Shown here: positions 7,253-55,200 of the stretch, in pieces | Layout of the letters: every line of letters begins with the position of its first letter | How positions within the stretch are numbered: the stretch's first letter is position 1 | Virus record (IMG/VR): IMGVR_UViG_3300009008_000022 | Coordinates: 17,459-81,458 of that record | Strand: one strand, 5' to 3' | Length of the DNA stretch: 64,000 bases | Source: a virus | The notes under the pieces: model-generated | What the model was told of the DNA's origin: nothing | The model's database searches: none | Seen by the model: the letters and a program-made list of their open reading frames with translations, nothing else | Position numbers and translations under genes: made by a program

Positions 7253-7296
7253 AGCGTCGTCCTTTTTCAACAGCTTGCCGTTGCAGCGGGGCGGTG

Positions 7297-9590: not shown

Positions 9591-9599
9591 GGTGCCTCC

Positions 9600-35626: not shown

Positions 35627-37393
35627 ATGAGATCAACCCGCAAGCTGCCGAATAACTGCCTACGCAGGCACGATCCACCGGTACGCACGCCCGTTGTGGG
35701 CGGCCAAGTCCAGCGGTCGCTCAAGGACGTAATCAGCGAGATCAAGGATCAGGGCGAGCTGCAATCTTCGCTCACGTCCGCCACAACTCAGGCCGCGCTG
35801 CATGAGCACATGCTCGTGGCGAGCTGCGCTTACTTCGCAGAGGCGACGATCAGCGGTCCTAACGAGGAGCCTTACAACGGCCGGTTTCTAATCGCAAAGC
35901 ACCACCTGGCATGGGATGAGGCGCTGCTCAGCAACAAGAAGCTCTGCATTCAGGCAGCTCGTGACCACGGCAAGAGCCACTTTTGGGCGGTCGCTTTCCC
36001 AATCTGGCTTGGCGGGTGGCGAATGCCTGGCGGCCTGGGCTATATGTTCAGCGCGAGCCAGGAGCTTGCCGAGGAAAAGCTGGAGCTGGTCAAGCGCGAG
36101 ATCAAACAGAACGAGGCGCTGCATTGGCTGATACCCGAGAGCGGTGAGCGGTACTGGTCAAAGCGGGAGATCCGGCTGAGCACCGGAACCATCATCCGAG
36201 CCCGCGGTTGGGGCGTCCGCGTCCGAGGCGGCCACCCTCAGTGGATCATTGCAGACGACGTGTTAGACGACGACTGCTTGTATTCGGAAACCATCCGGCG
36301 CCGGTCGGTTGAGTACTTCTTCAGCGTGCCCGTCAACATGGTGGTGCCGAACGGCTGGCTCGTCGTGGTCGGTACGCCGTTTCACTTCGCGGACCTGTAC
36401 CACAAGATCGCGGAAACCGGGAAATACGCCTGCTTAACTTTTGCCGCCCTGGACGGCGAAGATCCGCTATTCCCGCAGCGGTACAACGCAGCTCGCTTGC
36501 AGGACAAACGAGAGGAGATCGGAGAGATCCGGTTTGCTCGCGAGTTTCTGTGCCGGCCGCTATCCGATGAGGCGTCCCTGTTTCCGTCGCACCTGTTTGA
36601 AGGTGACGAGGTGCGCGTGCCGTACCGCCTGGGCATGGGCGCGGACCATTGGGAGGAGCGAAACATGCTCCGGTACACCGGCGTTGACCTGGCCTTTTCC
36701 GCCGAGACTGGCGCGGACTACACCGTGATCATCACGATTGCAGTAGACCCGCACGGCAACCGGTGGCTGGCAAACATGCGCAGGGGCCGCGGTTGGGGCT
36801 ATTCCAGGCAGATCCAGGAGATGAAAGAGGAGTACGCGCTCATGCGGCCTGATATGTTCCACATCGAGGCCAATCAGGCTCAGCGCATCCTGGGCGATTC
36901 AATCGCAGCTCAGTCCATTTTGCCCGTCCGGCTTTTCTTCACGGCCGGCGCTCAGCCCAAAAAGCCCTGGACCCGCGGCATGACCAGCATTACCGCAGGC
37001 AAGCACAGCCTGGACCGCGGCGTACCGAGCTTGAGGCTGGCATTCGAGCGCAAGAAGTGGCGGATCCCGCGCGGTGACGCGCACGCCATTGACATGACCG
37101 ACACCTGGATCGCGGAGTTTAATTGCATTGCCTACGAAAACGGCAAGGTTGAGTCCGTGGGCGAGCATGACGATTGCGTGATGGCTACTTGGATGGCGGA
37201 CACCGCAGCTCGCATGGGCGAAGGTGTTACGATGGTATTCGGAGGAGAGGAAGCAGAGCCGGAAAATGTTGATCCAGACGCGCCCGAAGCGGAGGATCTA
37301 GACTACTTCGGGCTAGGTGAGTACGATGCTGGGGAGGAACAACCCCCGCAGTACAACCTGGGAAGCCTGATCGGAGACAGAACAGGAGAGTGA
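35627..37393 (+). CDS. terL: Terminase large subunit
   Basis: AARDHGKS (Walker A), VRGGHP..IIADD (Walker B), VVGTP, FAREFLC, GVDLA, HDDCVMA nuclease motifs. Confidence 0.95.
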   Translation: MRSTRKLPNNCLRRHDPPVRTPVVGGQVQRSLKDVISEIKDQGELQSSLTSATTQAALHEHMLVASCAYFAEATISGPNEEPYNGRFLIAKHHLAWDEALLSNKKLCIQAARDHGKSHFWAVAFPIWLGGWRMPGGLGYMFSASQELAEEKLELVKREIKQNEALHWLIPESGERYWSKREIRLSTGTIIRARGWGVRVRGGHPQWIIADDVLDDDCLYSETIRRRSVEYFFSVPVNMVVPNGWLVVVGTPFHFADLYHKIAETGKYACLTFAALDGEDPLFPQRYNAARLQDKREEIGEIRFAREFLCRPLSDEASLFPSHLFEGDEVRVPYRLGMGADHWEERNMLRYTGVDLAFSAETGADYTVIITIAVDPHGNRWLANMRRGRGWGYSRQIQEMKEEYALMRPDMFHIEANQAQRILGDSIAAQSILPVRLFFTAGAQPKKPWTRGMTSITAGKHSLDRGVPSLRLAFERKKWRIPRGDAHAIDMTDTWIAEFNCIAYENGKVESVGEHDDCVMATWMADTAARMGEGVTMVFGGEEAEPENVDPDAPEAEDLDYFGLGEYDAGEEQPPQYNLGSLIGDRTGE

Positions 37394-38110: not shown

Positions 38111-38366
38111 TTTGCTTAACCACCACCTTAACTAGCAGCTTAACTAGGTGCTGTCCCTGCCACCTGGACGCGAGCCGTCCGCCCCCGTCATTTTTGTCCG
38201 TCCGAAGCGGTGGAATTGTCCACCGATACGGTAAAGGTGCGAGATGATTGGGGGCGGCCTGTCGTTTTGCTTAACCTATGGCTTAACTAGCAACTTATCC
38301 AATTCGTAGCAGATGCAGATGCAGATGAAGATCTGTTTTTAAGGGGGGGTGCAGGGGGGGAAACCG
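38111..38366 (+). repeat. Non-coding iteron cluster homologous to the origin segment of the initiator gene
   Basis: Two triplets of 12-bp-period (G/C/A)CTTA(A/T)C repeats, then GTAGCAGATGCAGATGCA and GGGGGTGCAGGGGG, colinear with 16101-16196. Confidence 0.75.
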
Positions 38367-38381
38367 GGAGAAGGATCCGCC

Positions 38382-41300
38382 ATGCCTATTTGGCTAAAAC
38401 AACCGCCGCAGCCCGCGCCGATAATCCAGGCGAACAGCGCCTTGCTCACCATGCGCCAGGCAGAGCGCACGCCACCGGCCAGCCGCGGTGAGTTTGGGAA
38501 CATGAAGCAGGCCAACAGTGTGCGTGACGTGCTGGACGGGCTAGGTCTGGGGATGGATCTTGAGCGCGCCCTGGGCGAGCGCGTTGAGCAATGGCTGGCC
38601 TGTCGTACCCAGGTTGAGATCATGGAGCGCGCACGGCACGATCTGGCCGGAGCTGTGGCGGATCCCTACGTCCGGCGCGAGATCATGGGCCGCGCCATGA
38701 ACCTGTGGCTGCGCACCGTGCAACCGGCCGAGCGGGCGCCGAACCATGGGACCATGATCATCAAGGCCCAGGCTGCGCAGTTCGCACCGGACAACCGGCG
38801 GCGGTGGGGAGGTGGGAAGCCCTACGGCGGGCAACGTCCGCCCTTGAGCCGGACGGTGACAGGACAGCCGAGCGGTGGAGGGTGGGAGGAAGTAAAGAAC
38901 AGCGCCCATGGAGGTTGGCGCAGGCCGGACGGCCGCGGTGGTTACGAATATTGGTATCCAGGGCAGGGCGGCCCCGGTGGCGGCCCTGGGGGAGCTGGGG
39001 GCGAAGCCAAGCCTCACCCGAATGAGGGCCAGGGCAAGGGCGATCCAAAGCCACCTGGCGTAAGGTGGGCACCTGTGCCGCACCATGCGCCGGGAACATT
39101 CCGCCGGCCAGCCGAAGATCATTCCGCGGGCGGGCCAGCTCACGCTTCACGCATGGAGGCGCAAGGGATTGCCTCAGAGCCGCACCGCGGGGCAGCGGAG
39201 GGGGAGAGTCAAGGCAACGAAACCCAGGGCGACAAGCCCGCAGAATCAGGAAAGGACTCCGGCATCCCGCCAGAGCTGCAAGCGCAGCTCGCCCAGGCCA
39301 TTGAAGCCTACGGTATGGACGCGGTGAAAAAGGGGCTGGGGAGCGTGACAGAGGCCGCGGCGAAGGCGGCCGATGAGCAGTACCAGGCCAAGGCCGCGGA
39401 GCTGGGGAAACATGAGACAGTCCAGGCCGCGGTAAAAGAGCACTTCGGCGGCAAGCTGCGCAGCAAGCCGAGCGAGCAAGAGGTTAAACAGCTCGCAAAA
39501 AAGCTGGGCAACGATCCCGAGATCCGCAAGCTGGCTGAAACGGCCATGCAGGGCGCCGATGGTGCGGTGGTGGACGCGATAGCCCAGGCCGCGGTGGACG
39601 CAGCCCCCAAGGCCGATCCTGGCCTGGCTAAAAAGCTCCTGGTAGGCGCCAAGGTCGCAGCCAAGGCAGCTCTGCCGAGCGCGGCGTTTGGTTTCGTGGA
39701 CAACTTCATGCTGTACCTGGCAGGGGCGAGCATTGACACCATGATCGCAGCCATGGGTTTCGGCGCCGCGGTGGTGGCCGGCCTGGGCAACGCAATCAGT
39801 GATTCAGTGGGCGAAGCCGTGGCTGACAAGATGGAGCGTTTCCTCGACAAACTGCCAGGGCTGAAAGAGGACGAGAAGGATGTTCTGACCCCGGAGCAGC
39901 GTCAGAAGATCGAGAGCAAGGCTAAGGTCGCGGGCGTGTTTGTTGGCGCGATCATCGGCATGTGCCCGTTGCTGGTAGGGATCGGGTTTGGGGGAGCGCC
40001 AGCCGCCAAGTCAGAACGGCTGGTATTTGCCGGCGGCCGGTTGCTGCTCAAGAGCGAGCCGGACCCGTTGCCCGCCCTGGACGGAGCGCCCGAGCTGGTG
40101 TTTGTCATGGTGGACACCGAGCCGCGCGACGGCCTGTTTCTGGTCAAGGGAGCGGGGCACAAGTACCTCAGACGGATCCGCAACCCGAGCCCACCGCCCA
40201 ACTGGCGCTATCTGTACAAGTACCCAACCAGGAAGGGTTTGGTACACGACGATCACCTCGTTGAAGGGGCGAAATTCAAGGGCAAACACGGCGACCTGGA
40301 GGGCCACTTTGAAGTAACCGGAGTGGTCAAAAAGAAGGGCAAGCACGTTATCGCGCTGAAGCACGACGAGTCCGGCAAAACGATCTACGTTCACCGCAAG
40401 GACATTCAGGGAATGCTCACCCGCTATCACAAGGATGCGGGCACGCATAAGGAGCCGCGCAAGCGCAAGCCCAGGGCGCCCAGGGCGCCGGCTAAGAGCT
40501 TTCCCGAGCCGGACAAGAGCAAGGCAACCGAGGGCACCTACAGCGGCGAGCTGCCGAAGATCGGGCTCAGGGACACTCACGCATGGGAGGAGATGAAAGG
40601 CTTTGCTGACGATGAGCAAGCCGCGCGGGAATTGCTGGCGAGCTGGGACACGCACGGCCAGGAGTACGGCCTGATACCGCAGCCCAACGGGGTGATGATT
40701 ATGCGCCGGACAGCTCGCACCGGCAGCAAGGCGGTGAAAGAGGGCGCGTCTACCGTGGTGGCGTTCAAGGGCGACGGCAAGATAGAGCGCCAGCAAGGCG
40801 AGTACATGGTCATGGAAATGAGCGAGCTGATCCCGAGCCACAAGCCAGGGAGCTTTGCGCCGGACCCGCGCTACCCCGATGGTGTTCAGGAGCGCGTTTA
40901 CCACGACGATCCAAACGAGCGCGCGAAGGTGGAGGAGATCGCCCGCGGCCTGGATCCTTTTTTCGTGATCAACACCAATAACGACGGCGTTGGAGGGCCG
41001 CCCGTGATCACTCCAGACGGGATCGTGCTAGGCGGCAACGGTCGCACCATGGGGATCATGACGGCATACACGCACTACCCGGAGAGCGGGCAGAAGTACA
41101 AGGATCACCTGGCAAGCCAGGCCAGCGACTTTGGTTTCAGCTCGCATGACATTCAGGGCATGAGCCAGCCGGTGCTAGTGCGGCGCGTGGCGGTGGACGC
41201 GAATAACACGCAGAAGGCTCGCATGTGGGCGCGCGTGCTGAATGAGCCGTTGACGCAGGGCATGGACCCGCGCACCGAGGAAGTTGCGGTCGCGAAGAAC

Positions 41301-42332
41301 CACATGAACGAGCGCGTGATCGCCGCCCTGGTGGCCGGCATGAAAGAGGGCGAGACAATCCACGCCTTTTTGAGCGGGGCACATAGCCGTGAGTTTGTGG
41401 ACGGGTTGAAGCTGGCCGGCATCATCGACCGGTACAACGAAAGCAAGTATCGCCACGTTGACGCCACGGCCGGAGCTGACAAGCAAGGGCTGCTTAACGA
41501 GGAAGGGATCATGAGGATCCAGCGCGTGCTAATCGCCTCGCTTATCCCTGATTCTCGGCTGCTCAAGCGTATGCCGAAAAACATGATCACAGCTCTGGCC
41601 GGCAGCGTGCCGCACCTGTACCGCGCCCAGGCCGCCGGTTGGGATCTGTCCGGCGCGCTGGCCGCGGCGGCGGACGCCTGGCTTGACGCGAAACACCGGG
41701 AGTACAAGACAGCCGCCGCCTACCTCAAGGCCACCGAAATGGACTACGGCGACGGCGATAACAAGATGGCGCCGTTGATGAAAGATCAGGCCGCGGAGTT
41801 TATGTTTCGGATCCTGTTCAAACCGCAGGCCACCGCGACGGCCACAAAGATGCGCGAGCTGGCAAACCGCGCGGGAATGGCGAAGCAAGCCCGAGAGGAG
41901 CAGGACAGCGGCGGCATGTTTGCCATGCTGGGCGAAACCGCGGACGCGCCAGAGCCGGAGAAGTTGACCGACGCGCTTGATACGATCTGGGGTATCACGG
42001 CAGAGGGGCGCGGCCGGCGCCAGGCGGAAAAGGACGCGGCCAGGGCGGAACAGCTCAAGGCGTACCAGGCGCGAGCCGATGAAATGGGAATGCACGTCGA
42101 GCAGTACGAGGCTTACCAGGATTGGGCCGCGGAGGACAAGAAGTGGCAGGACCGGCAGAACAAGCGCAAGCGCAAGGCGCGCAAGCCGGACCCGAGGCCG
42201 GAGAAGCCGCCGATCATCCAAGGGCTGAGAGTGGGACACCGGGAGCACAACATGGGGCTATTCCGCGAGCACGATGCGAAGCGACGGCGCGAGCAGATGA
42301 AAGACGACAGCCGGGAGCGGGAGGCAAGTTAA
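38382..42332 (+). CDS. Giant modular protein A: GW/EYWYP module, TMEM65-like membrane domain, HKY..WRY module, DdrB-like ParB domain
   Basis: FGFVDN...AGLGNAISD..G...LTPEQ...GAIIGMCPL (39669-39980); PSH...Q.R.Y...GPPVI..DGIVLGGNGRT (about 40800-41700). Confidence 0.8.
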   Translation: MPIWLKQPPQPAPIIQANSALLTMRQAERTPPASRGEFGNMKQANSVRDVLDGLGLGMDLERALGERVEQWLACRTQVEIMERARHDLAGAVADPYVRREIMGRAMNLWLRTVQPAERAPNHGTMIIKAQAAQFAPDNRRRWGGGKPYGGQRPPLSRTVTGQPSGGGWEEVKNSAHGGWRRPDGRGGYEYWYPGQGGPGGGPGGAGGEAKPHPNEGQGKGDPKPPGVRWAPVPHHAPGTFRRPAEDHSAGGPAHASRMEAQGIASEPHRGAAEGESQGNETQGDKPAESGKDSGIPPELQAQLAQAIEAYGMDAVKKGLGSVTEAAAKAADEQYQAKAAELGKHETVQAAVKEHFGGKLRSKPSEQEVKQLAKKLGNDPEIRKLAETAMQGADGAVVDAIAQAAVDAAPKADPGLAKKLLVGAKVAAKAALPSAAFGFVDNFMLYLAGASIDTMIAAMGFGAAVVAGLGNAISDSVGEAVADKMERFLDKLPGLKEDEKDVLTPEQRQKIESKAKVAGVFVGAIIGMCPLLVGIGFGGAPAAKSERLVFAGGRLLLKSEPDPLPALDGAPELVFVMVDTEPRDGLFLVKGAGHKYLRRIRNPSPPPNWRYLYKYPTRKGLVHDDHLVEGAKFKGKHGDLEGHFEVTGVVKKKGKHVIALKHDESGKTIYVHRKDIQGMLTRYHKDAGTHKEPRKRKPRAPRAPAKSFPEPDKSKATEGTYSGELPKIGLRDTHAWEEMKGFADDEQAARELLASWDTHGQEYGLIPQPNGVMIMRRTARTGSKAVKEGASTVVAFKGDGKIERQQGEYMVMEMSELIPSHKPGSFAPDPRYPDGVQERVYHDDPNERAKVEEIARGLDPFFVINTNNDGVGGPPVITPDGIVLGGNGRTMGIMTAYTHYPESGQKYKDHLASQASDFGFSSHDIQGMSQPVLVRRVAVDANNTQKARMWARVLNEPLTQGMDPRTEEVAVAKNHMNERVIAALVAGMKEGETIHAFLSGAHSREFVDGLKLAGIIDRYNESKYRHVDATAGADKQGLLNEEGIMRIQRVLIASLIPDSRLLKRMPKNMITALAGSVPHLYRAQAAGWDLSGALAAAADAWLDAKHREYKTAAAYLKATEMDYGDGDNKMAPLMKDQAAEFMFRILFKPQATATATKMRELANRAGMAKQAREEQDSGGMFAMLGETADAPEPEKLTDALDTIWGITAEGRGRRQAEKDAARAEQLKAYQARADEMGMHVEQYEAYQDWAAEDKKWQDRQNKRKRKARKPDPRPEKPPIIQGLRVGHREHNMGLFREHDAKRRREQMKDDSREREAS

Positions 42333-44725
42333 TGGCGAAGGCAGAGAAGAAGGGCGCCGCCGCGGCCGGAGTCCGGTACGTCATGGACTGCCTGCTGGTG
42401 GAGGCCAAATTCGAGGTACAAGGGGCGGTGCACCTGTCCATGATTAAGGACCGGAGCGTGAGCGTTAAAACCTCAGAGATCGTCGCGCGCCTCAAGAAGT
42501 TCGCCCAGGCCAAGCTGGAGCTGGACCCGCGGTTTCGCGCCGGTTGGGGCAGCTCGCCAGTGACCGATGAGCAGCTACACGCAATCGTCGGGCCGTTGGT
42601 TGAAATGCGGGCCGGAAAGATCGTCAAGGGCGGTGAGCGGATCTGGTGCCAGGGAGGGCCAGCTCCGCGCCCTTTCGTTAAGGGCGAGCGGCCGTCCGGC
42701 GCAGGCTGGCAGGCCGTACCAAATACCAAATTTGGCGGGTACAGGCGCCGCGGCAAGGGCGGCAAGTGGGAGTATTGGTATCCCGAAAAGCACGCCAAGT
42801 TGGGCCATGGGTTTGAAGCTGAGCATGTGGAGCTGCGCGAAAAGCGCGACCGCGTTGCGGCCGACATAGAGCGCCGCGGCCTGGGGGTGGAGTACGAAAC
42901 GAGCCCAGGCCGGTATCTGGTTGTCATGCCGGACCCGTCGCACGCGGGCAAGGTCCGCACGCAGAGCTACGATGAGCACGGATTCTCTGGGCACCGCACC
43001 TATGACGATCTGCCAGCTCTGGCCGCGGACGTTGCCAAGTGGGAGTACAACGGGATCAAGCCAGCTCAGGCCGGCACGCTAGACAAGCTCGCCCAGGGCG
43101 AGCCATGGCGCCAGGCCGCCCTTCACCAGCAAGCGTTAAGGGAGATCGAAAGCCTGGAGAGGCAGGGGCAGGACGTGAGCGAGCTACACGCGGTCCTAGC
43201 TCGCAAAGGGTCAGAGGCGCTACTGGCGCACCTGGGCAAGTCGGAGGCGCCGCGGTTGCTCGCCCTGGGCGACCGGTTGGTCAAGGCTGGCGTTGGAGCG
43301 GAGCGGCAACAGATCATGTTTGCAGCTCGCCAGCGCAAGCAGTACCCGCCAGGTTACAAGCCGGAGCACAAGGTCAAGGGAAAGACGGTCAAGGTCCACA
43401 CTAACGGCTGGCAGGCTATCCCCAAGGGGCACAAGGGAGGCTATCGGCGCCGGACCCGCGGCGGGTGGGAGTACTGGTATCCAGACCATCACGCGCGGCC
43501 TGGGCTACACGCACCGAGCGTGGAGCCGCACGGCGGCACGTTGGCCGAAGCGGTGGAGCTGCGCGAAAAGCACGGCGTGCCGATCCATGTAAGCTGTGGC
43601 GCTGGGGTGGACAGTACCGGTTTGCTGGTAGGCATGTATCAGCAGGGGATCCGGCCGGATGCGGTTGTGTTTGCGGACGTGGGGAACGAAAACCCGCGCA
43701 CTTATATGTTCCTTCCCCACCTGGACGCATGGCTGAGATCGGTTGGCTTCCCGCCCCTAACCGTGGTGCGAAACAAGCCGACCGTTAGCGCCTCAGAAAT
43801 GGTGAGAGAGGCGCGCGGAAAGACTTACGCCACGTTGGAACAGAACGTGGTGCTGCATGAAACCCTGCCGTCAATCTCACTGGCCGGTGGCCGCGGTTGC
43901 AGCCAGAAGTGGAAACACCAGCCTCAAGAAGCCTGGGCAAACCAGCGCGAGGATTGCCAGTCGGCATGGGAGCAGGGCTTCAAGGTCACGAAGCTAATCG
44001 GCTACAGCTCTGACCCGGCGGACAAGCGCCGGCCGGATATGCCGGACGATGAGAAGTATCACTATCAGTACCCGTTGCGTGAATGGGGGTGGGATCGGGA
44101 GCGGTGCAAGAAAGAGATCGCCGCGGCCGGTATGCCCGTACCAGTCAAGAGCGCGTGCTGGTTTTGCACAGCGACCAAGCCGCACGAGCTGCGCCGCATA
44201 GTGAGCGAGTACCCCGACATCGGCCGCCGGATAATCCAGATGGAGGCCGCCGCGGAGGACAACCTACGCAAGATCCGCGGCCTGTGGGGCACACCGGTGA
44301 AGGGGGCCAGGGGCGCGCTAAAGAAGCCGGGAACAATGGCAGAGTGGATCATCGGGGAGGAGTTGCTGCCGGAGTTTAAGGGCCAGGATATTGTTGACCC
44401 GTGGTGGCGCCAATCAGGCCAGGTGACGCCCGGTAACGAGCACTTCAAGGTGGCGGACGTGATGCACCTTGTAGACGCGCCACCGCCGCCGGTGAGCCCG
44501 CTTGAGGATCTAAGCGGCCTGGCTCCGGTGGACACCGACGAGCTGCGCGAGCAGAGCAAGGCGCGAAAGCGAGGTGGTGCGGTTCAGACCAGCTTGTTTA
44601 AGAGCGCGCCCAGGGCGACGATGAGGGACGGAGATCAAAAGTTCTGGGCAGCCATGGCATTGATCCAGGCGTTTGATCAATTCGACAGCATGGGCAAGGA
44701 CGGCAAGCGGCATGGATCTGAATGA
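42332..44725 (+). CDS. Modular protein B: two GW/EYWYP modules plus a PAPS-reductase-like PP-loop domain
   Basis: SCGAGVDS, FADVG.E, CSQKWK, IGY, YPLREWGW.R..C, PVKSACWFC. Start coupled by TAATG at 42332. Confidence 0.8.
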   Translation: MAKAEKKGAAAAGVRYVMDCLLVEAKFEVQGAVHLSMIKDRSVSVKTSEIVARLKKFAQAKLELDPRFRAGWGSSPVTDEQLHAIVGPLVEMRAGKIVKGGERIWCQGGPAPRPFVKGERPSGAGWQAVPNTKFGGYRRRGKGGKWEYWYPEKHAKLGHGFEAEHVELREKRDRVAADIERRGLGVEYETSPGRYLVVMPDPSHAGKVRTQSYDEHGFSGHRTYDDLPALAADVAKWEYNGIKPAQAGTLDKLAQGEPWRQAALHQQALREIESLERQGQDVSELHAVLARKGSEALLAHLGKSEAPRLLALGDRLVKAGVGAERQQIMFAARQRKQYPPGYKPEHKVKGKTVKVHTNGWQAIPKGHKGGYRRRTRGGWEYWYPDHHARPGLHAPSVEPHGGTLAEAVELREKHGVPIHVSCGAGVDSTGLLVGMYQQGIRPDAVVFADVGNENPRTYMFLPHLDAWLRSVGFPPLTVVRNKPTVSASEMVREARGKTYATLEQNVVLHETLPSISLAGGRGCSQKWKHQPQEAWANQREDCQSAWEQGFKVTKLIGYSSDPADKRRPDMPDDEKYHYQYPLREWGWDRERCKKEIAAAGMPVPVKSACWFCTATKPHELRRIVSEYPDIGRRIIQMEAAAEDNLRKIRGLWGTPVKGARGALKKPGTMAEWIIGEELLPEFKGQDIVDPWWRQSGQVTPGNEHFKVADVMHLVDAPPPPVSPLEDLSGLAPVDTDELREQSKARKRGGAVQTSLFKSAPRATMRDGDQKFWAAMALIQAFDQFDSMGKDGKRHGSE

Positions 44726-47700
44726 CCTGTTACAGCGAGGGTTGAGAAAGGCGGAACAGCTCGATCTGTTTGGGCCGGAGCAACTAACCTCAGACAGAGG
44801 GCCACGAGACACCGTGAAGCCGGCCACGCCGCGCCGAGTTGGTAAGCCAGGCCGCGGCAAGCGCCGCAAGAGCAAGCGCGTTATACCGCCGCACCAGGGC
44901 CACATGACGCCACCTGGCAAGGGTTGGCAGGCTATCCCGCGGGGCAAGAAGGGCGGTTTCAGACGCAAGGGCAGCAACGGCAAGTGGGAGTACTGGTATC
45001 CCAACAGGGGAATCACTCCCAGCCCGCACCATAAAGACATTCCCGACAGGCCCGATCCGGCGAAGGATCCGAAGGGCGCGCTGGCATGGTGGGGGATGCG
45101 CCTTTATGAAGGCACCGTCAACGACGAGGGGTTTTGGCAGGACCACCGGAGGACAACCGGAGCCAGGCCGCGGGTTTACAGCTTGAGTTGGGATTATGGC
45201 CGAATGAGCCTGGCCCTGTTTGATGCAGTCGAGGGCATACCTCAACAGCAAAGGGCCGCCATTTTGGAGCCGACGCGGGAGCGAGCGCACTTCCCCCGCG
45301 ATCAGTTCACCGACATGGCCGAAAGCTATCGCCGGTTGGAGGAATACCAAGTCGCGGTGCGATTGAATGCCGAGCGCCGGCCGGCCGCCCCCGTCGAGGA
45401 CGTTGACGCCGCGGTGGACAGCCTGCAAGGGGTGGAGCCGGAGTCCGCCCAGGGCGCCGACGTGCCGCACCTGGAAGTTGAGGAGTACGACGGCCGCGAG
45501 GGCGATCCAAACCACCTTACGCGCAAGGAAACCGGCCGCGTAACGCCGCAAAGCCTGGCTCACTTAAAGGGGGCCAGGAAAGAGCACGGCTACATGCGCT
45601 GGCACGACGGCAGCGCCATTGGAGCGAAGGATCCAGGGGAATACTTCGGCAGATATACCAGGGAAAAGTGGGAGGCGTTTGTTGCCGACATTAAAGCGCG
45701 CGGCGTTCAGGATCCGGTTTTCATCGTTAGGAACCCAGAGCCAGGCACGCGGCACGATCCGGCTGGAACGTGGGTGTATGAGGGCAATCACCGCATAGCC
45801 GCGGCATTGGAGGCGGGGGTTAAAACGATCCCGGTAGAGATCCGCTACTTCGGCCACACTGAGCGCGACGGCCAGGCTGCGCCAGGGTGGGATCGTATGC
45901 CCGAGAGTGAGCCCGCCCAGGGCGAGCCACACGAGCCGGGGCCGGATACGTTTCACGGCAAACTTACGGCGCTACGGGCCGAGGCTGAAAGGCTGGACTT
46001 GCCCACGGCCGCCAGGCTGCTTAACCCGGAAGGCTGGCCCACGGACGATGAGAAGTTGGGCAGCGTGCTAATGGACGCCACCGCGGAGCTGGGCGGGTTG
46101 CTAGTAGGGGAGGATACGCCGGACAACCGCCGCCGCCGTGAGCTGCTAATCGAGGGGATCAAGGTCTGGACCAAGGATGGCGAGTACGAGCCGATCACGT
46201 CCCTGCATACCAGCCGCGAGGATCTTCAACGGCTGGGGTTTAGGACCATTGCCAAGTTCACTGATCTGAAAAAGCTGGGCTACCGTATCGTTCAGTGGGC
46301 GCGCGTGGTGGGCGAGGTGTACGGCGACAACAAGGACATGGCCGGTTGGGAGATCGTTCACGAGTATGACCCGATGCACCCCGACGCGGGCAGCGGCGCA
46401 GGGCTGGCCGGCAAGCGTGATCACAAGACGGGTGACGGGTTGGGCTATTGGGAGGCTCCAGCGCCCGGTGATGCGCCAGGGATGAGCCCCGAGGCGGTGC
46501 GCTACACGGCGCCGGCCGGACCCGCGACAAGCAAGGTCCATGAGCTGTTGACGGGGGAAGCTACGCGCTTGACGTTGCCAGGCGTAGACATGAAGGGCAC
46601 CAGCGTGCGCAAGCGCGGTGTTAATCCGGCCGATGCAATGGACCGCGGAAGGGCAGAGCGGGACAAGGCCAGGCGGGCGCAGACCAGCCTGGGGTTTGAC
46701 TACTCCGGCGACAGCCCGCACCACCAGGCAGAGCGCGCCAGGGAGCTTAGTATGGGGGCGGCCTGGGCGATCCTTAACCCGGATTTTGAACATACCTCGA
46801 CCGACGTTAAGCGCGTCCGGCAGCAGCTCGCAGATGATGCGGTTGAGCTGGCGAAGCTACAGGCCAGCGAGCCGGATAGCGAGGCAACGCGCGAGCTGGC
46901 TGAAATGCAGAAGCTCCGGCGGGCCGCGTTGCGCACGGTGAAGCCCAAAGGCAAGCGAGCCGCGGCGCTGACAGCTCGTGGGGAGAGTAAAAAAAAAGAT
47001 CCGGCCGCCGGGATTTATGAGCGGGTAGCCCAGGCATCGGGAAGTTCCGCAGCTTGGATGGTGCAAAGCAAGGCCCGCGAGGTTGCTCATATGCAGCCTG
47101 GCGACCACTTTATGAAGCCAGGCGGGATTTACGCGACCGCGGCCAAGATCACGTCAACCCATGTGATCGATACCCTGGGCAAAAAGCACACGCTGGCGTC
47201 CCTGTTTGGGCTGAAGCTGAAGGATAAGGATCTGGTAACGCTGGCCCTGGCGGAAGGCGCCAAAGAGCCGCCGCCCAAGCGCGGACCAAACCCGGATTGG
47301 GTAGCCGGCTGGGAGCGCATGAAGCCAGGCGACAGCTTCACCTTGCCAGCCGATCCGCGAGGGCTGAGCTACCACGGGCCAGTGTTGGCCGGAGCGCGCG
47401 AGTACAAGGTTACAAGGCGGGTGGGAGATCGGACCTTTGAGGTGGAATTTCAGCACCCGGAAGGGCCAATAACCGAGGCCGAAGCCAGGGCGGCGCATGT
47501 AGACCACAAGGGGCGCCCGCGCGGGAACAGCGGCCTGGCCTACCATGGGCAGAAGTTCCGAGCTGAGATCAGCCGTTACCATGATGGATCGTGGGGCGTT
47601 GATCTCCTCGACCCTAACCCCACGTCTTACATTTCAGCTCACCCGGACGGCGGTGGAGCGGCGCCCACTGAGCAGAACAATGGAGGGCACGAGGGGATCG

Positions 47701-49601
47701 AAGTGGACCCGGTGATTCATCATCGGTCGGCGCCGATGCTGCGCGCCATGGCCGGACAGAAGGCCAAAATGCCGGAGCCGGGAAGCATCACCGTCAACCT
47801 GGCAGAGCTGGCGAAGAAAACCGGAGCAGACTACCACGACAACCTAACCCTGGCGGCCAGCGTTGCTCAGGCTTTCTTGACGGGTAGCGACAACCTGCCC
47901 GTGATCCTGCCGATGCTGATTAAGCATGTGAAAAAGGATCAGGCCGCGATTGATGAAGGCCGGGAGAAGTGGGACAGCCTGCCCGCGGCGCTCAAATACG
48001 ACTACGCCAAGATGGCAGAGTTGCACGAGCGGCGCCGATCCGTACTGGATCAGGTTGAACCAGGGTGGGACCGTATGCCGGACAGCGAGGGCGGCGAAAG
48101 CCCTGGCGACAAGATGATGCGCATGACGCGCGAGGGTCCGAAGCTCACCGCGGAGGGGCTGTCTCCCGGCGGGCCGGAGCCAGCGCCGGCCGAGGTGGAG
48201 GCGAAACGCAAGGCGCTGCTAGACCGCGCGAAGGATCTGGAGCGGCGCTCTGACAGAGAGTTTGAGCAGGCGCGCGGCATAATCCAGCACCATACCGGGC
48301 AGCCTATCCAGGCGAGCGGGCACCATTCCAGGGGCCGGCACATGCGCGAGCTGGAGCGGCACGACGAGAAAGCCGCCCGAGCAATTCGGACGCAGAAGCA
48401 GGCCGAAGCTCTACGCGCCCGCGCTGAGCGGGTGGAGGATGAGCTGCGCGGTGCGCGCAAGGCGTCCGCCGGCAAGCCGGAGGCCAGCGGCGACAGATGG
48501 ATCCGCCTGGGCGAAGGGACCACGCGCCGGCAAGCCATGCGGGCAGCTCGCAAGGGCGACTTTGGACCGCCGGTGGGCAGGCAGGTTCAAAACGCGATCT
48601 GCATTGCCCTGGACGTAAACGGCCGGTGGTGGGTTGGGGAGCGCGGCACCTTGGAGGGCGGCAGCTCCGGCGGACACCCGCTTAGGCTTATCGCCTATAC
48701 AACGCCGAAGAAGGGCGCGAAGTGGGAGCCCACGGTGGGCAAGTATTCCGCCCGATCAATGGACGAGGCAGAGGAAACCGCCCGCAGTTATTTTGCCAGC
48801 CTGGCAGACGGCACCCGAGAGGTGACGATACCGGACAGCGACAAGATCAATCAGCCGCCGATAGACCTGGAGCACGACGGGTGGACCGCGGAGTCATGGC
48901 AGGCGTTCCGCCAGGGCGAGCTGGACGGCCAAGCCGAAGCGAAGCGGAAAGCAGAGGCAGAGCGCCAGGCCAGGGTTGAGGCGCAGGAGCGGCGAGAGGC
49001 CGAGGCAAGAGCCAAGCGCGAAGCGGAGGTTAAAAAGCGACAGCAGGAACAGGAGCGCAAGCGCCAGAAGCGGGTTGAGTCCGGCAAGCCAGCGCGGGCA
49101 TTGTGGGAGGGATTGCAGCCTGGCGATAAGTTCCAGTTTCCCCCCATGGGCGCCTATGGGGACTATGACCCGCACGTTTACGTTGTGAAAGCGGTGGGCC
49201 GAAGTGAGATAAGCGGGGAGCCGGAGATCGTTATCCGGCGGCACCGCGCCCGTAAAACCATGACGGCCACGATGGATGAGTTTGGGCATGTTTCCGCCAT
49301 TCCCGAGGGAAAGCAGAGCTGGCTGAGCCGAAGCCTGGGCAGGCCGGAGCCGTTTGAAAAGCCGAAGCCCGAGCCGGCCGGCACCATGGGGCCAGGCGCG
49401 CACCCTTACACCGCGGAGCTGCAAGCCAAACTGAAAGAGCTGGAGGCAATCTATCAAAAGCACAAGATCAAGGGGCCGAAGGCCGACCGCGTTATGGCGG
49501 CGTTTCGCGAGGTGGTGGTGGAGGTGTCTAACCTTCCGGCCGACGCGGACGTGGGCACGGCCAACAGCTTTTCCACACGAGCCCCGCGGTCCAGGGCGTA
49601 A
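44712..49601 (+). CDS. Giant modular protein C: GW/EYWYP module, ParB/Srx domain, DUF3560-like domain (continues in frame into D)
   Basis: DIKARGVQDPV...EGNHRIAAALEAG.KTIPV (45650-45860); GQPIQASGHHSRGRHMR (48200-48450). Confidence 0.75.
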   Translation: MDLNDLLQRGLRKAEQLDLFGPEQLTSDRGPRDTVKPATPRRVGKPGRGKRRKSKRVIPPHQGHMTPPGKGWQAIPRGKKGGFRRKGSNGKWEYWYPNRGITPSPHHKDIPDRPDPAKDPKGALAWWGMRLYEGTVNDEGFWQDHRRTTGARPRVYSLSWDYGRMSLALFDAVEGIPQQQRAAILEPTRERAHFPRDQFTDMAESYRRLEEYQVAVRLNAERRPAAPVEDVDAAVDSLQGVEPESAQGADVPHLEVEEYDGREGDPNHLTRKETGRVTPQSLAHLKGARKEHGYMRWHDGSAIGAKDPGEYFGRYTREKWEAFVADIKARGVQDPVFIVRNPEPGTRHDPAGTWVYEGNHRIAAALEAGVKTIPVEIRYFGHTERDGQAAPGWDRMPESEPAQGEPHEPGPDTFHGKLTALRAEAERLDLPTAARLLNPEGWPTDDEKLGSVLMDATAELGGLLVGEDTPDNRRRRELLIEGIKVWTKDGEYEPITSLHTSREDLQRLGFRTIAKFTDLKKLGYRIVQWARVVGEVYGDNKDMAGWEIVHEYDPMHPDAGSGAGLAGKRDHKTGDGLGYWEAPAPGDAPGMSPEAVRYTAPAGPATSKVHELLTGEATRLTLPGVDMKGTSVRKRGVNPADAMDRGRAERDKARRAQTSLGFDYSGDSPHHQAERARELSMGAAWAILNPDFEHTSTDVKRVRQQLADDAVELAKLQASEPDSEATRELAEMQKLRRAALRTVKPKGKRAAALTARGESKKKDPAAGIYERVAQASGSSAAWMVQSKAREVAHMQPGDHFMKPGGIYATAAKITSTHVIDTLGKKHTLASLFGLKLKDKDLVTLALAEGAKEPPPKRGPNPDWVAGWERMKPGDSFTLPADPRGLSYHGPVLAGAREYKVTRRVGDRTFEVEFQHPEGPITEAEARAAHVDHKGRPRGNSGLAYHGQKFRAEISRYHDGSWGVDLLDPNPTSYISAHPDGGGAAPTEQNNGGHEGIEVDPVIHHRSAPMLRAMAGQKAKMPEPGSITVNLAELAKKTGADYHDNLTLAASVAQAFLTGSDNLPVILPMLIKHVKKDQAAIDEGREKWDSLPAALKYDYAKMAELHERRRSVLDQVEPGWDRMPDSEGGESPGDKMMRMTREGPKLTAEGLSPGGPEPAPAEVEAKRKALLDRAKDLERRSDREFEQARGIIQHHTGQPIQASGHHSRGRHMRELERHDEKAARAIRTQKQAEALRARAERVEDELRGARKASAGKPEASGDRWIRLGEGTTRRQAMRAARKGDFGPPVGRQVQNAICIALDVNGRWWVGERGTLEGGSSGGHPLRLIAYTTPKKGAKWEPTVGKYSARSMDEAEETARSYFASLADGTREVTIPDSDKINQPPIDLEHDGWTAESWQAFRQGELDGQAEAKRKAEAERQARVEAQERREAEARAKREAEVKKRQQEQERKRQKRVESGKPARALWEGLQPGDKFQFPPMGAYGDYDPHVYVVKAVGRSEISGEPEIVIRRHRARKTMTATMDEFGHVSAIPEGKQSWLSRSLGRPEPFEKPKPEPAGTMGPGAHPYTAELQAKLKELEAIYQKHKIKGPKADRVMAAFREVVVEVSNLPADADVGTANSFSTRAPRSRA

Positions 49602-49628
49602 ACGGCCGCATGGAAGATCAACGAATAC

Positions 49629-52205
49629 ATGCGCGAGCTGGCGCAGCGGCGCACGGCCGCCAAGCGCAAGGCGGCGAAGAAAGCGGCGGCGCAACGGGAG
49701 GTAGAAGGCAAGGCCACCGAGGGCACCGCGCCCGCGGAGCTGGAGAGCACCGAGCCGTCCGAGTTGATGCGCAAGCCTGCTTACAAGGCGGCGCTGGACC
49801 TTCACGAGCATGTTAGCGAGCGGCGTATCCTCGACAGCTACACGATAGAGGACTATCCGATCTCCCGGCACCACCGCGGCGCGGTCAAGGTGTGGGTACA
49901 GCACCGGCCAGGCTACGGATGGCGCCTCATGCGGCAAACCTCGAAACCCTACGGAGGGTGGGCCAAGCCGAAAAATTGGGGCACCTACTCCCACAGCCCG
50001 ATTTACATCGTGGAGCCCAAGCCAGGATCCGATGAGCGCGGGATCGTGCTGCGCATACACGAGGAGTGGCACGCTGGCGCTACGCTGAGCACCATCACGG
50101 GCACACAGGTTATGGGCTGGTCAAACGACGACAGGGGAGGCAGCAACGACAATTCGCCCGACGTGAAGCTCGCCCACGAGATCAACGCCCTGGCGCGGTC
50201 CAGGCGCGTGGCCGAAGCGGCAGAGGTGGCGCCGGAGCAGGTAGCAGCTCAACAGGCAGAGAACCAGGAGCGCGCTATCGAGGCCGTAACCAGCAAGTTT
50301 GAGCGCGGCCTGGCGGAAGCGCGTCACCGGTTGGATCAGGTGCGCGGCACGGCAGACCCGAACCGGTTGGGCAGCCAGAAACGCCGGAGCTACGAAACGG
50401 CGTTGAGGATCCTGTCAGACTACGGCGTTGACTCCAGCACGGGCGAGATCAGCTCATGGGGCAAGTTGGGCAAGTGGGCCGCCAAGCTCGCCAGGTGGAC
50501 ACCGGACGCGCCCGCGCTGCCGGATAACGTCAACGCGCCCGCCCAGGGCGACCGGCCGAAAACCGGACCCGAGCGCATGGCAGAGCTGAAACGGATGCAG
50601 GATAACAAGCCCACGCCGCGGTTGACGCCGCACCAGCGGGCCATGGGCCAGTTCAATACGCCGCACCCGATTGCCTATCGCATGGCAGAGCTGGCCGGCG
50701 TGAAGGGAAAGACGGTGCTGGACCCGACCGCGGGAGAGGGCCGGCTGTTGCAGTACGCGCGTGAGCAAGGCGCGGACAAGGCGCACGGGTTTGAGATCGA
50801 CAGCAGCTTGACCGACTACGCCAGCCAGCACGGCGTATTGCACGCCGATTTTATGAGCGTGCCAGCGGCCAAAAACCAGGCGGACGTGGTGCTGCTAAAC
50901 CCGCCGTTTACGACTCGCGGCGGGCCGGATACCGCGGGGATCATGCGCAAGGCGCTGCATGATTGCTGGACCGGCGAAGGCCGCGCGGTGGTACTTCTGC
51001 CGGCTGGCCCGAGCGGGGAGAAGTTGATCGCGCCGTACCGCGATATGGTGGTAGATGAACATGATCTAGCTGACGATGCGTTCAGGCGCGAGGGAACTAG
51101 CGTGCGGTCCAGGCTGTATGTGCTGGAGAAGGAATCAACCGCCAAGTCCGAGCGGCTGATCTTGGAGGGCGAGCCGATGGAAAAATGGGATGGCTACCTA
51201 CTTCACAAGGGGCAGCGCCGGCCACCTGGCGCCGGCTGGCAGCCTGCACCCCACAGCAAAAAGGGCTACTGGCGAAAGCGTGGCCCTGGCAACCGTTGGG
51301 TGTACTGGAATCCAGCTCACGGCGTGCACCAGGAAGGCGGCGACCTGTTTAACCGCGGTGGTACAGAGGAAGTGGGCCGGCTGAAGCCAGAGGATAGCCA
51401 GCGCGAGGCAGAGCACCACGAGGCCATGACCGAGGTTATCCAGGCGCGCGAGCTGGCGAAGCGGACCAAGGCCAGGTTTGGCAACGGCAGCCACAGTGAG
51501 CGGGTAGCCGCGGCCCTGTCGCGTGGGGATCACGAGGCGGTGACGCGCACGCATAGCGCGGAGGCGGCGCACGCTACCACCACGGCAGAGCTGGACAAGA
51601 TTAAGGGCCAGATCGCGCGGAGCCGGGACATACACCGGATCCACGAGCTGCAAGACAAAGCACGGCGGATAGCCGCGGCCGGAACGGCGCTCATGCACCA
51701 CTACGAAACCCGCCAGGCCAGCCTGTTTGACGAGGACACTTCGATCCCCGAGGTGAAGCGGCTGAGCCGCGCGGAGCTGCATGATCATTCCGAGTCGTTG
51801 ATGGAGATTGAGCGGGCTGCGCAGCGCCACCACCGCAAGGGCAACGAGGACCAGGCCACCGCGGAGATCCGGCGTTTGGCCGATGCAAAAGACAAGCTCA
51901 AGGCAGAACTGCCGAAAGGTGAGTTTCAGAAGGTTCTGGATCGGTTTCAGGAAACCGTAGCGCGCGAGCAGCGCGAGCGGTGGAAGCGGCAACGCGAAGC
52001 CGGCAAGGGCAAGCGCAAGAAGGCGCCGCCGGTGGCGGACATGAGCCAGTCGAGCCTGGCCCTGGGCGGCAAGGGAGACAAGGGCGGCCAGCGCGAGGCG
52101 AAGTTGGAGCACGGCGGAAAGAAGCCGAAGCAAGCCAGGGCAACCCAGGGCAGCCTGTTCACCGATGGCGACCTGGGCGGCACCGGCCGGTTGCCGGGGT
52201 TTTAA
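49629..52205 (+). CDS. Modular protein D: N6-adenine methyltransferase plus GW module (probably the C-terminal part of protein C)
   Basis: QFNTP, VLDPTAGEG, FEID, VLLNPPF (50640-51135). Same frame as C after a single TAA; no evident RBS. Confidence 0.8.
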   Translation: MRELAQRRTAAKRKAAKKAAAQREVEGKATEGTAPAELESTEPSELMRKPAYKAALDLHEHVSERRILDSYTIEDYPISRHHRGAVKVWVQHRPGYGWRLMRQTSKPYGGWAKPKNWGTYSHSPIYIVEPKPGSDERGIVLRIHEEWHAGATLSTITGTQVMGWSNDDRGGSNDNSPDVKLAHEINALARSRRVAEAAEVAPEQVAAQQAENQERAIEAVTSKFERGLAEARHRLDQVRGTADPNRLGSQKRRSYETALRILSDYGVDSSTGEISSWGKLGKWAAKLARWTPDAPALPDNVNAPAQGDRPKTGPERMAELKRMQDNKPTPRLTPHQRAMGQFNTPHPIAYRMAELAGVKGKTVLDPTAGEGRLLQYAREQGADKAHGFEIDSSLTDYASQHGVLHADFMSVPAAKNQADVVLLNPPFTTRGGPDTAGIMRKALHDCWTGEGRAVVLLPAGPSGEKLIAPYRDMVVDEHDLADDAFRREGTSVRSRLYVLEKESTAKSERLILEGEPMEKWDGYLLHKGQRRPPGAGWQPAPHSKKGYWRKRGPGNRWVYWNPAHGVHQEGGDLFNRGGTEEVGRLKPEDSQREAEHHEAMTEVIQARELAKRTKARFGNGSHSERVAAALSRGDHEAVTRTHSAEAAHATTTAELDKIKGQIARSRDIHRIHELQDKARRIAAAGTALMHHYETRQASLFDEDTSIPEVKRLSRAELHDHSESLMEIERAAQRHHRKGNEDQATAEIRRLADAKDKLKAELPKGEFQKVLDRFQETVAREQRERWKRQREAGKGKRKKAPPVADMSQSSLALGGKGDKGGQREAKLEHGGKKPKQARATQGSLFTDGDLGGTGRLPGF

Positions 52206-55200
52206 GTGGGCCAGCAACAGCAACTTGGATTTGACTTTGGCGGCGAAAAAAAGCGCGTCAAGGTACTGAGCGCAGGCGGCGGCCTTGACTCCTGGGCAAT
52301 GTGGCTCAGGGCCAAGGCGCGCGGGGAGCTGCCGGATCTGGTTATTTTTGCGGACGTGGGAGATCCCGAGGGCAAGCACCCCGCGGAGTGGCCGAGCACC
52401 TACCAGCACTTGAGGGAGGTATTCCGGCCGGATGTTGAGGCGCAAGGCGTTGAGTTTAAGTGGCTGACCGCCGAGGACATACCCGTTCGATCCCACCGAA
52501 AGAGCTGCAAGAGTTGCGGGGAGCAGCACCCGGAGGGGTTTGACAGCCTGTATGCCTATCTCCGGCACATGCGAAACCTGCCAACTGGCTCGTCAAAAAT
52601 GTGCACCAGCGCGGGCAAGGTGGAGCGGATCGGCCAGTGGGTTGAGGACCGATACCCCGACGTAGACGAGATCGAAATGTGGATCGGGTACGGCGCAGAG
52701 GAAACCGGCCGCCTGAAGAAAAACAGGTACGCCCAGGGCCAGGGGCGGCGCGTCAACCGATACCCGTTGATTGAAGAAAAGCTCTGTCGGGAAAAAGAGC
52801 TGGTGATTGCCATGGCGAGCGGGCACCCCGTGCCGCGCAAGAGCGCGTGCGTTTACTGCCCGATGAGCAGCCGCGGTGACTTTCTCACGCTGCTTAAAGA
52901 GCAGCCCAAGATGTTCCAAATGACGCTGGACATGGAGGAAAACTCAAAGCTAACCGAAGCCCGACGCAAGCGATTGCGCTACTCCGGCACCGGCGAGCAT
53001 ATGCCGAACTTGCTTGAGTGGGTCACGAACACCGGCCGGTACGAATTTACGCCAACCGGACGCCGGACCAAGCCGTATATCTCCAGCCGAGACAAAGAGG
53101 ATTGCCCCTGTTGCGGGAACAAGAAAGCCAGCAAGGCGACAGGCTCAGACTACGCGCACGCTGGCACCGGCCGCGAGATCCCGGTTGACGTTACAGAGCT
53201 GGACGCGCCAGGGCACGTCATTGCGATCCATGTGGACAAAAAGACAGGCGAGCCATACGTCGATCACAAGCTCAATATCCCTTACATGGAGGAAGCCCAC
53301 GGCCCGATCACGCCGGAAACGCCGATCATAAACTACGGAACCAAGCCGATAGTGGGCCTGGAAACCACGTTTACGCCCCACATCCTGTACGTTGGCCCAC
53401 GGGGCGGCCGGTGGGCAGACCCGAAACACCGGATACATTGGGATCCGAAGGTGCACGGAACGGTGACAAGTCAAACCAGGCGGATAAAGAAAGCCGAGGT
53501 GATGCTCAAGGGCGGCAAGTTTCCAATCGGGACAATCCGCACCTGGCGGGACGGCAAGCGGTATAGAAAGGTCAGAGAGGGCCAGTGGCAAGAGGTAGCG
53601 CCAGCTCGCCAGGCACAGCAGCTCGATCTGTTTGCGGCCATGGATTCGCGCGTTACCGAAAAGGACCGCGAGCCGATTTGCAGCCGGCCGCCGCCGGTCA
53701 GTGTGCCACCGGAGATCAAAGACGCCCTGGACCGCGGCGGATACCTGATTATCAACAGCTCCGGCGGCAAGGACTCGCACGCGCTGACCTACGCCCTGGC
53801 GACCTGTCCCGAGCTGGCGGCCTACAAGGACCGCATGATCGTCTATCACGCGGACCTGGGCAGGGCCGAGTGGCCGGGAGCTGGTGCCAAGGCAGAGGAG
53901 ATCGCCAAGCAGTTCGGGTTGCCGTTCGTGAAGGTCAAGCGGGACGCGAGTATCAACCGGGAGACAGGCAAGCGGGAGGTGTGGGAAGGCGACATGCTAA
54001 CCCACATGGAGGAGCGGGCAGCCTGGCCTAGCATGACAACGCGAATTTGCACGTCCGCCTTAAAGACAGGCCCGATCTGGAAAGCCCTACGGCGCCGGTT
54101 TTCCAAGGAAGGCGTGCCGATTGTTTCCGCCCTGGGCGTGAGAAGGCAAGAGGGCGAAGGCGACAAGGTAAACGCGGGCAGCCGGTGGTTTGCAGAGGAG
54201 TGGCACCAGGGCGGCGACTTTGGAACAAAATCAGTCAAGGAGCCGGTGCGCCTTGAGGTGCGCGAGGTATCTCACGAGCTGGCGCCCTGGCCTAGCCCGA
54301 GCAAAAAGGATCTCCGCGCGGTGAAGCGGGGGACAGTAAACCGGTCTGTCAAGCGGGAAGCCTACGAATGGAATCCCCTTGTGGATTGGGATCTGTCGCA
54401 CGTTTGGGGGGCCACGCGCGAGTCCGGCGTGGATCGGCATTACGCCTACGATCTGGGGTCCAGCCGGTTGAGCTGCTTGTGGTGTCCGTTGTCCAGCCAG
54501 GCGGACAAGGTAGCCGCAGCCAAGGCCCACCCGGAGATATTGCGCCAGTGGCTTGACGCTGAGAACAAAATGCGCGCCACGCATGAGCAGCGCCGAGGAT
54601 TTTGGGCAGAGCACATAGACCGCGGCCAGGTTGAGGGCGGCATGGAAGTAACAGAGCCGAAAGACGGCGGTGTGCCCCTGTATGCGTTCGACGCGGCCAG
54701 AATGAGCCAGGCCGAGATCGTGGATATGAAGCGCAACGGGGGGAAGTACAGCAAGAAGCGCGGGACCGTCGAGATCCCCAAGCGATACCTCAAGCCGTTT
54801 CTGGAGTACGGCACGAAGGGCAACCAGGGCGAGAGCTTGCTTGCCTTAATGGCCCGGTTAGGCGTCACGCTGGAGAAGGCAGCCAGCGATCCGGCATTCG
54901 TGCGAGAGTTGGTCAAGCGAGCACGCGAGCACGGCCGCCAGATGGACCGCTACCAGCTCGCAGTCGAGCGGGTGATAGAGGTTAAGGACCGCGTTGCAAG
55001 GGCCAACGGCGCCACCAGAGAGCGCCTGTTGCGGCTGTATCAGCGGGAGATGGATCAGCTTGCCGGCATTGGCGCGCAGCTCAAGGGCTCGCACCCGTTC
55101 CCCTCGTCCGGCGAGGGCATAGCCAGGGAGCAGGCCGCGCGTAAGTCGCTGCTGGACCGCGGCCAGGCCGTAGCAGCTCGCATGGAGGAACGGATGGAGA

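Follow-up and report, generated by a model that had tools for sequence, protein, structure and literature searches.

A TMEM65-family domain inside a giant phage protein

The window analysed here is the right-hand 64 kb of the 81,458-bp IMG/VR virus record IMGVR_UViG_3300009008_000022, in which a giant open reading frame (ORF A) lies directly downstream of the gene for the large terminase subunit (terL) and carries a TMEM65-type membrane domain in its interior. A first-pass annotation of this DNA had placed such a domain at 39669-39980 on the forward strand, and the stop-free translation of this interval gave exactly the peptide that had been quoted. The Pfam TMEM65 profile (PF10507) matched residues 440-542 of ORF A (nt 39666-39974) with an E value of 3.7e-16 and 59.5 bits as opposed to the curated cut-off of 25. 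The excised domain piece scored 64.8 bits against the same profile (E 7.9e-18), and 65 bits were obtained in a six-frame search of the contig. The three hydrophobic helices carry, one after the other, F-G-F-x-D-N, G-N-x-x-S-D-x-x-G and a zipper of the form G-x3-G-x3-G..P-L. On profile score and motif order, the embedded domain is a genuine member of the TMEM65 family, though it is not an orthologue of the mitochondrial protein. The resemblance to the VIT1/CCC1 metal transporters that had also been proposed was not borne out, as no Pfam VIT1 match was found even at E<=1 and no VIT1 chain occurred among the structural matches, which were themselves not meaningful.

Strong hydrophobicity is confined to the three helices of the domain among the roughly 8,500 residues of ORF A and the five giant frames that follow it (ORFs B-F), with a 19-residue Kyte-Doolittle mean of 2.39 in the domain and at most 1.14 elsewhere. 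The AlphaFold2 (AF2) model of the core had a mean predicted local distance difference test (pLDDT) score of 89, with helices at residues 2-27, 29-38, 43-71 and 85-107. Neither a sequence search of solved structures (no relevant match for the domain) nor Foldseek of the core model against the PDB (no match at E<=0.001) gave a relative, and in the wide VIA-align comparison the best Z score of 6.8 (Ctr1, root-mean-square deviation (rmsd) 7.6 A) lies within the noise for helical models. We claim the core model as neither a new fold nor a VIT1 relative. For the model of the 256-residue module (see below) the best Z was 5.6, with nothing usable, and its core confidence is low because the alignment held 16 rows only. 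Prediction of a two-copy core complex gave scores of 0.20 and 0.17, under the mark, which speaks neither for nor against oligomerisation. A PT-VENN match over the loop and helix 3 was dismissed as chance (17.4 bits against a cut-off of 20.3).

On the conservation and modelling of its two halves, residues 306-553 of ORF A are a single module composed of a helical domain of about 110 aa and the three-helix TMEM65-family core (Table 1). The upstream domain has no Pfam match and is modelled by AF2 at pLDDT 80-95. It may be noted that the database copy of ORF A (P0003) begins at the ATG at 38382 and has 1316 aa, and this ATG is likely the real start. The same frame carries both Pfam TMEM65 and ddrB-ParB and lies in the head and packaging block, which upholds the earlier description of the domain as embedded in a giant multi-domain phage protein. 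For the label 'polyprotein' given to it, polyvalent protein is the better term (PMC5512222). Over about 300 aa, the ddrB-ParB region is 25-27% identical to DdrB of P1, P7 and D6 (tblastn E 3e-8 to 3e-11).

Two short elements recur around these domains. A tag of about 28 aa (G-W..I-P-G-G-K-K-G-G..R-R..Y-E-Y-W-Y-P type) stands directly after the TMEM65 linker in several relatives (P0007, P0008, P0011 and L003), and also in a 734-aa protein (L016:4534-6738) of a 109-kb relative that matches a PHROG annotated 'released from the phage upon host infection'. Judged by this recurrence, the tag is a candidate for a shared cargo, capsid-targeting or linker signal. The other element, K-G-A-G-H-K-Y..N-P-S-P-P-P-x-W-R-Y (40137-40226 in the window), follows the linker here, in P0009 and in P0004, as a short module between the TMEM65 and ddrB-ParB domains.

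Table 1. Coordinates of the features in the 64-kb window.
Feature	Position (nt)	Strand	Remarks
Large terminase subunit (terL)	35627..37393	+	phrog_38, E 5.6e-54
ORF A	38349..42332	+	1327 aa from GTG
Short tag motif	38874..38960	+	GW..GG.RR..YEYWYP type; recurs in giants and relatives
Upstream helical soluble domain	39264..39605	+	~110 aa; conserved with TMEM65 core in polyvalent clade; N-terminal half of module
TMEM65-family core	39636..40007	+	residues 430-553; Pfam envelope 39666-39974
Helix 1	39666..39725	+	invariant F-G-F-x-D-N; Asp at human D132 position
Helix 2	39762..39824	+	invariant G-x-G-N-x-x-S-D-x-x-G; Asp and Gly at human D167 and G170 positions
Helix 3	39927..39995	+	most hydrophobic segment; invariant glycine zipper G-x3-G-x3-G..P; clade-specific G..F-G extension
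K-S-E-R-L after domain	40008..40022	+	K-S aligns with clade-wide F-G-K-[S/G] end; candidate processing site
Linker	40041..40151	+	two more hydrophobic-K-[S/G] motifs (LLLKS, FLVKG); leads into G-A-G-H-K-Y..P-P-P-x-W-R-Y element
ddrB-like ParB domain	40785..41189	+	Pfam PF18763, residues 813-947, E 3.9e-21; homologous to P1 internal head protein DdrB
ORFs B-F	42122..63727	+	PAPS-reductase, ParB-like/DUF3560, N6-methylase, Sbno (Strawberry-notch)/SNF2 helicase domains

Conserved residues and relatives of the domain

A HMMER search with the 123-residue domain among 1.84 billion representative proteins gave 844 matches at E<=0.001. The best 16 of the 844 are nearly all 1251-3037 aa long, and the domain lies anywhere from position 183 to 1656. 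When 154 domains were placed in a maximum-likelihood tree, those of 13 giants and of three smaller proteins that are probably fragments grouped in one clade with a support of 99 in the Shimodaira-Hasegawa-like approximate likelihood-ratio test. Nearest to this polyvalent clade stand unnamed metagenomic proteins, and next come algal and animal TMEM65. From the proteins that carry it, the clade is best read as occurring only inside giant phage proteins.

Residues are labelled below by their number within the domain, and the alignment holds the same 154 domains (16 from the clade and 138 others). F17, G18, D21, N22, G29, A47 and G50, together with G103, G107 and P110 of the zipper, do not vary among the 16 clade members and vary little or not at all in the 138 others, D21 being present in all 154. 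Outside the clade G99 is near-invariant, and within it invariant; D33 is invariant in the clade and is D or E in other members. Near-invariance across the alignment is seen at N51, D55, G58 and at position 66, which is acidic. Mutagenesis of human TMEM65 has shown D132, D167, G170 and E178 to be required (PMC12830682). These map to D21, D55, G58 and E66, all kept in the phage domain, where an acidic residue 11 positions beyond the helix-2 Asp takes the place of E178. The mapping was made by the spacing (0, +35, +38, +46) seen in animal-type members such as P0071, the human sequence being outside the aligned set, which includes one cluster named TMEM65 by NCBI. Retention of buried acidic and amide residues would not be expected of an inert anchor, and the kept Asp/Asn/Asp/Glu set therefore argues that the ion site is functional and the domain more than a passive anchor.

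At 41-57% identity, the polyvalent clade keeps every signature residue and has also evolved conserved extensions of its own. Its helix 3 is prolonged to G..F-G-K-[S/G], with G114 and G118 invariant and F117 in 14 of 16 members, whereas outside the clade these positions vary and are often occupied by charged residues. This is a dedicated phage clade under strong constraint. That the domain is a recently captured passenger without a role in this phage is hard to credit in view of these kept residues and extensions, although polyvalent proteins readily accrete domains (PMC5512222).

The eukaryotic TMEM65 resides in the mitochondrial inner membrane, and Na+-dependent Ca2+ efflux requires it (PMC12830682). 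The phage domain shares with it the three-helix core, the order of the motifs (the zipper ending in P-L) and the four required positions, and is 34-48% identical to algal and animal-type members. It differs in being an internal module of a 1327-aa protein, whereas the eukaryotic protein stands free, has about 240 aa and bears a mitochondrial presequence and an acidic tail. Also the spacing between helices 1 and 2 is one residue shorter in the phage domain, and only the phage domain has the G..F-G-K-[S/G] extension of helix 3 and an upstream helical domain of its own.

The fusion partners of the module are shuffled among lineages. Besides ORF A, 6 of the 12 clade relatives scanned with Pfam combine TMEM65 with ddrB-ParB; InPase, LPD1, N6-methylase plus SNF2, Strawberry-notch helicase and DUF5661 are the other partners found, and DarA_C stands beside TMEM65 in one relative, below its cut-off. 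It may be asked whether the domain is a membrane tether only, which would anchor the cargo or a ParB-bound incoming genome end at the host inner membrane without any transport, its conserved polar residues serving helix packing or oligomerisation. The fusion in cis to a DNA-binding domain in half of the scanned relatives would suit such a tether, as would the glycine zipper, which is a packing motif, and any pathway through a three-helix protein would need oligomerisation. But a plain anchor leaves unexplained why the residues needed for Ca2+ handling by human TMEM65 (PMC12830682) are invariant across phage, viral and eukaryotic members. In the 109-kb relative, moreover, the TMEM65 and ddrB-ParB domains are found in separate proteins, and the partners in other relatives are enzymes without need for a membrane site. 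We regard the tether as an unlikely explanation.

In IMG/VR, contigs with the giant form (L003, L004/L005 and L006) have 54-65% G+C, and viral contigs with stand-alone TMEM65 proteins (90-460 aa) have 35-45%. The stand-alone viral proteins (IMG/VR L001 and L007-L013, BFVD A0A2I7SAH6 and giant-virus proteins) belong to the same Pfam family, but they are single-gene proteins in which the F-G-K-[S/G] end is missing, and they do not belong to the polyvalent clade. The 94-aa BFVD A0A2I7SAH6 superposes on the core model with an rmsd of 2.1 A and a target-normalised TM-score of 0.85 at 35% identity. In the stand-alone proteins L007-L012 (287-463 aa) the domain is C-terminal and the motifs P-P-x-V-K-D-[WF]-L and P-x-W-M-R-F-[LM]-D are present; by these sequence features they are a separate viral lineage of the family. 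A metagenomic protein of 546 aa (P0010, on a 2.4-kb contig), also outside the polyvalent clade, has two tandem TMEM65 domains per chain.

A tblastn search of the domain against 50,697 phage records gave no match even at E<=1, and the domain is therefore absent from the sequenced isolates of that collection. Clade-specific peptide patterns searched in 185,579 representative prokaryote genomes had their sole match in the metagenome-assembled genome of a Thermoproteota archaeon (L015:6001-6180), though these patterns are too narrow for absence to be inferred. This archaeal match is partial, covering helices 1-2 at 37% identity.

The head-gene block and the polyvalent array

The record has a completeness of 61% by CheckV, and its left 17 kb encodes head-decoration, adaptor and tail-sheath proteins. 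The tail sheath on the same record identifies a contractile-tailed phage (myovirus), which is distant from any isolate (at most 29% identity). The position of terL directly upstream places ORF A in the head and packaging block. ORFs B-F follow and reach nearly to the contig end, and the tight packing and overlap of the giant ORFs throughout is consistent with a single operon. Taken at its longest, the frame of ORF B shares about 210 nt with the end of ORF A (42122-42332), and the true start of ORF B is probably further downstream.

Taken by its domains and their order, the ORF A array is a "polyvalent" protein array sensu Iyer et al. 2017, whose catalogue includes DdrB-ParB, InPase, LPD1, DarA_C, methylase and SNF2 modules (PMC5512222). 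Shared with the catalogued proteins are the giant multi-domain protein, the DdrB-ParB hub domain and the location in the terminase-portal block; also the neighbours carry N6-methylase, SNF2/Sbno helicase and ParB, and the relatives carry the catalogued InPase, LPD1 and DarA_C. On the other hand, neither TMEM65 nor the word 'transmembrane' occurs in the catalogue (PMC5512222), and an embedded zincin-like peptidase, which is common though not universal in polyvalent proteins, was not detected in ORFs A-F.

Among the closest known systems is that of P1, in which the Dar proteins including DdrB are internal head proteins co-ejected with the DNA (PMC12810830). With the P1 Dar system (DarA and DarB, DdrA and DdrB, Hdf, and Ulx) the array shares the DdrB homology, and P1 is also a myovirus. 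ORFs D and F jointly resemble P1 DarB (methylase plus helicase), and by their predicted domains ORFs B-F are the remainder of a DarB-like polyvalent array. P1 DdrB has no TMEM65 domain, however, and no DarA_N or DarA_C match was found in ORFs A-F, nor any homologue of DarA or Hdf in the window, the contig being incomplete. On the basis of these comparisons ORF A is best read as a polyvalent cargo protein of an uncultured myovirus with a genome of about 130 kb.

The 109-kb relative (G001), which is 97% complete, shows the gene order around the module. terL, a ddrB-ParB giant, a DUF5661+TMEM65 giant, the portal and an InPase giant come first, and they are followed by the 'released from the phage upon host infection' PHROG protein, the head maturation protease, the scaffold and the major head protein. 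This order puts the module inside a head-morphogenesis operon. The protease of this relative was found by PHROGs as a separate gene, and searches for Peptidase_S78 and S77 gave no match in either the present contig or the 109-kb relative. In the relative (L016), the C-terminal region of the protease (7049-7855) and the N-terminal region of the major head protein (9317-10750) share the motif G-E-G-F-x-L-R-x-E-S-[LM]-E, possibly a recognition or cleavage element of the protease itself as judged from its two occurrences. The G-E-G-F-x-L-R-x-E-S motif is unlike KSERL and F-G-K-S.

Location in such a block bears on a further explanation, namely that the protein is not packaged and that the giant or a fragment of it inserts from the cytoplasm in the producer cell, with effects on ion balance, superinfection exclusion or lysis timing. 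Co-translational insertion is the default fate of so hydrophobic a segment, and the stand-alone TMEM65 proteins (90-460 aa) of other viral contigs have nothing that hints at packaging. We consider action in the producer cell improbable nevertheless, as the domain lies in the head gene block between the terminase and the portal and protease, and the polyvalent clade is separate from the stand-alone forms. One may also think of the module as part of an ejectosome, whose oligomers would form an inner-membrane conduit for DNA and other cargo proteins. In favour of it, no other segment of the whole cargo array is membrane-competent and the glycine zipper of the module is extended; the phage is moreover a myovirus, a group in which the channel across the inner membrane is in general poorly defined. 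Yet the activity known for the family is the handling of small cations, and its conserved acidic residues are more in keeping with an ion site than with a wide pore for DNA (PMC12830682), and a conduit would be needed by all phages while the module is present in few lineages, so that we give little credence to the conduit.

Possible release and delivery of the module

The pentapeptide KSERL lies directly beyond the last hydrophobic helix, 11 residues past the Pfam envelope, and the boundary in this phage reads A-A-K-S-E-R-L. Its coding pattern occurs three times in the window, each time in frame in a giant ORF (A, D and F), as opposed to 0.24 expected from shuffles. The first-pass annotation had the domain end exactly at KSERL. 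While KSERL does follow the domain, the conserved element at that position is F-G-K-[S/G], and the residues beyond it vary. After K-[S/G], motifs that recur in the linkers of relatives are R-L-V-I, L-L-[FL]-K-[SAG], Q-L-x-L-F and the G-W..G-G..R-R..Y-E-Y-W-Y-P tag. Q-L-[SGD]-L-F-type motifs, which are like those that bind the beta clamp, are seen 15-30 residues after the F-G-K-S end in P0006, P0013, P0016, P0018 and L004.

Membrane topology also bears on this boundary. Three is an odd number of membrane helices, and the two flanks of an inserted module would therefore lie on opposite sides of the membrane. The relatives, however, carry cytoplasmic enzymes on either flank (InPase upstream in some, methylase/helicase downstream in others), from which it follows that the module is either cut free before insertion or never inserts while linked. 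By its conservation the clade-specific K-[S/G] end is the obvious candidate cut site. Hydrophobic-K-[S/A/G] as a general cut site was dropped because of its weak or absent enrichment, and we keep it as a working hypothesis for the C-terminal boundary of the domain.

From the homology to the P1 Dar internal proteins and the retention of the transport residues, virion delivery and altered ion flux, which had been suggested at first pass, appear plausible. In the reading we prefer, the module would be excised, travel in the capsid, be ejected and end up in the host membrane as a cation pathway, and to this we assign a probability of about 0.45; packaging, cleavage and transport are the steps that we infer. 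The giant protein would be made late and loaded into the procapsid with other Dar-like giants. It would then be cut at linker sites, for example at the F-G-K-[S/G]/KSERL boundary, which would free the module from the DNA-binding ddrB-ParB part, and the freed module would be ejected together with the DNA. In the host it would insert in the cytoplasmic membrane and oligomerise via the glycine zipper, so as to conduct or exchange cations (Na+/Ca2+, possibly H+) through the buried Asp/Asn/Asp/Glu set that it has in common with mitochondrial TMEM65. The ionic conditions at the point of entry may in this way be altered in the first minutes of infection, which would support the co-delivered anti-restriction payload.

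Several points weigh against this delivery scheme. At 61% completeness, the contig is without its portal, protease and capsid genes, and domain scans of ORFs A-F at E<=0.01 found no family of peptidases. The relatives do not conserve KSERL as such, and hydrophobic-K-[S/A/G] motifs are weakly enriched in ORF A (7 against 4.1 expected, a number reached in 55 of 500 shuffles), similarly weakly in ORFs B and F, and not at all in ORFs C-E. A strongly hydrophobic three-helix core would somehow have to escape the membrane of the producer cell before packaging, and the model of the whole module is without confident packing of the helical domain around the core. Also it is debated whether human TMEM65 is the exchanger itself or a regulator of NCLX (PMC13483046, PMC10592617).

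Of the literature searched, no paper links TMEM65 with phages and none lists a membrane module among the domains of polyvalent proteins. New here are the direct TMEM65-ddrB-ParB fusion, the F-G-K-[S/G] end that defines the clade, the helical domain conserved upstream of the core and the residue-level match to the mutagenesis. The stronger proposal, that a tailed-phage lineage carries in its capsid a functional cation exchanger or channel of the TMEM65 type, excised from a polyvalent precursor and delivered to the host inner membrane along with the DNA and anti-restriction enzymes, is put forward tentatively, and we lean against it as it stands. If true, known virion cargo would for the first time include an integral-membrane module of a transporter family, and the disputed mitochondrial Na+/Ca2+ exchanger would gain a minimal relative that can be expressed in bacteria. 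The phage core of about 120 residues, or the 250-residue module, has every required residue and no mitochondrial partners and should express in bacteria, which makes it a clean test object for TMEM65 reconstitution and structure.

By analogy with the Dar proteins, the anti-restriction proteins of this phage group are probably accompanied into the host by a small membrane module that handles ions. So far, the polyvalent or Dar-type cargo reported has consisted of soluble enzymes and DNA-binding proteins. A membrane module that is conserved and keeps its ion site prompts the question of how so hydrophobic a protein stays packageable, and it would extend capsid delivery to the manipulation of the host membrane and its ions in the first seconds of infection.

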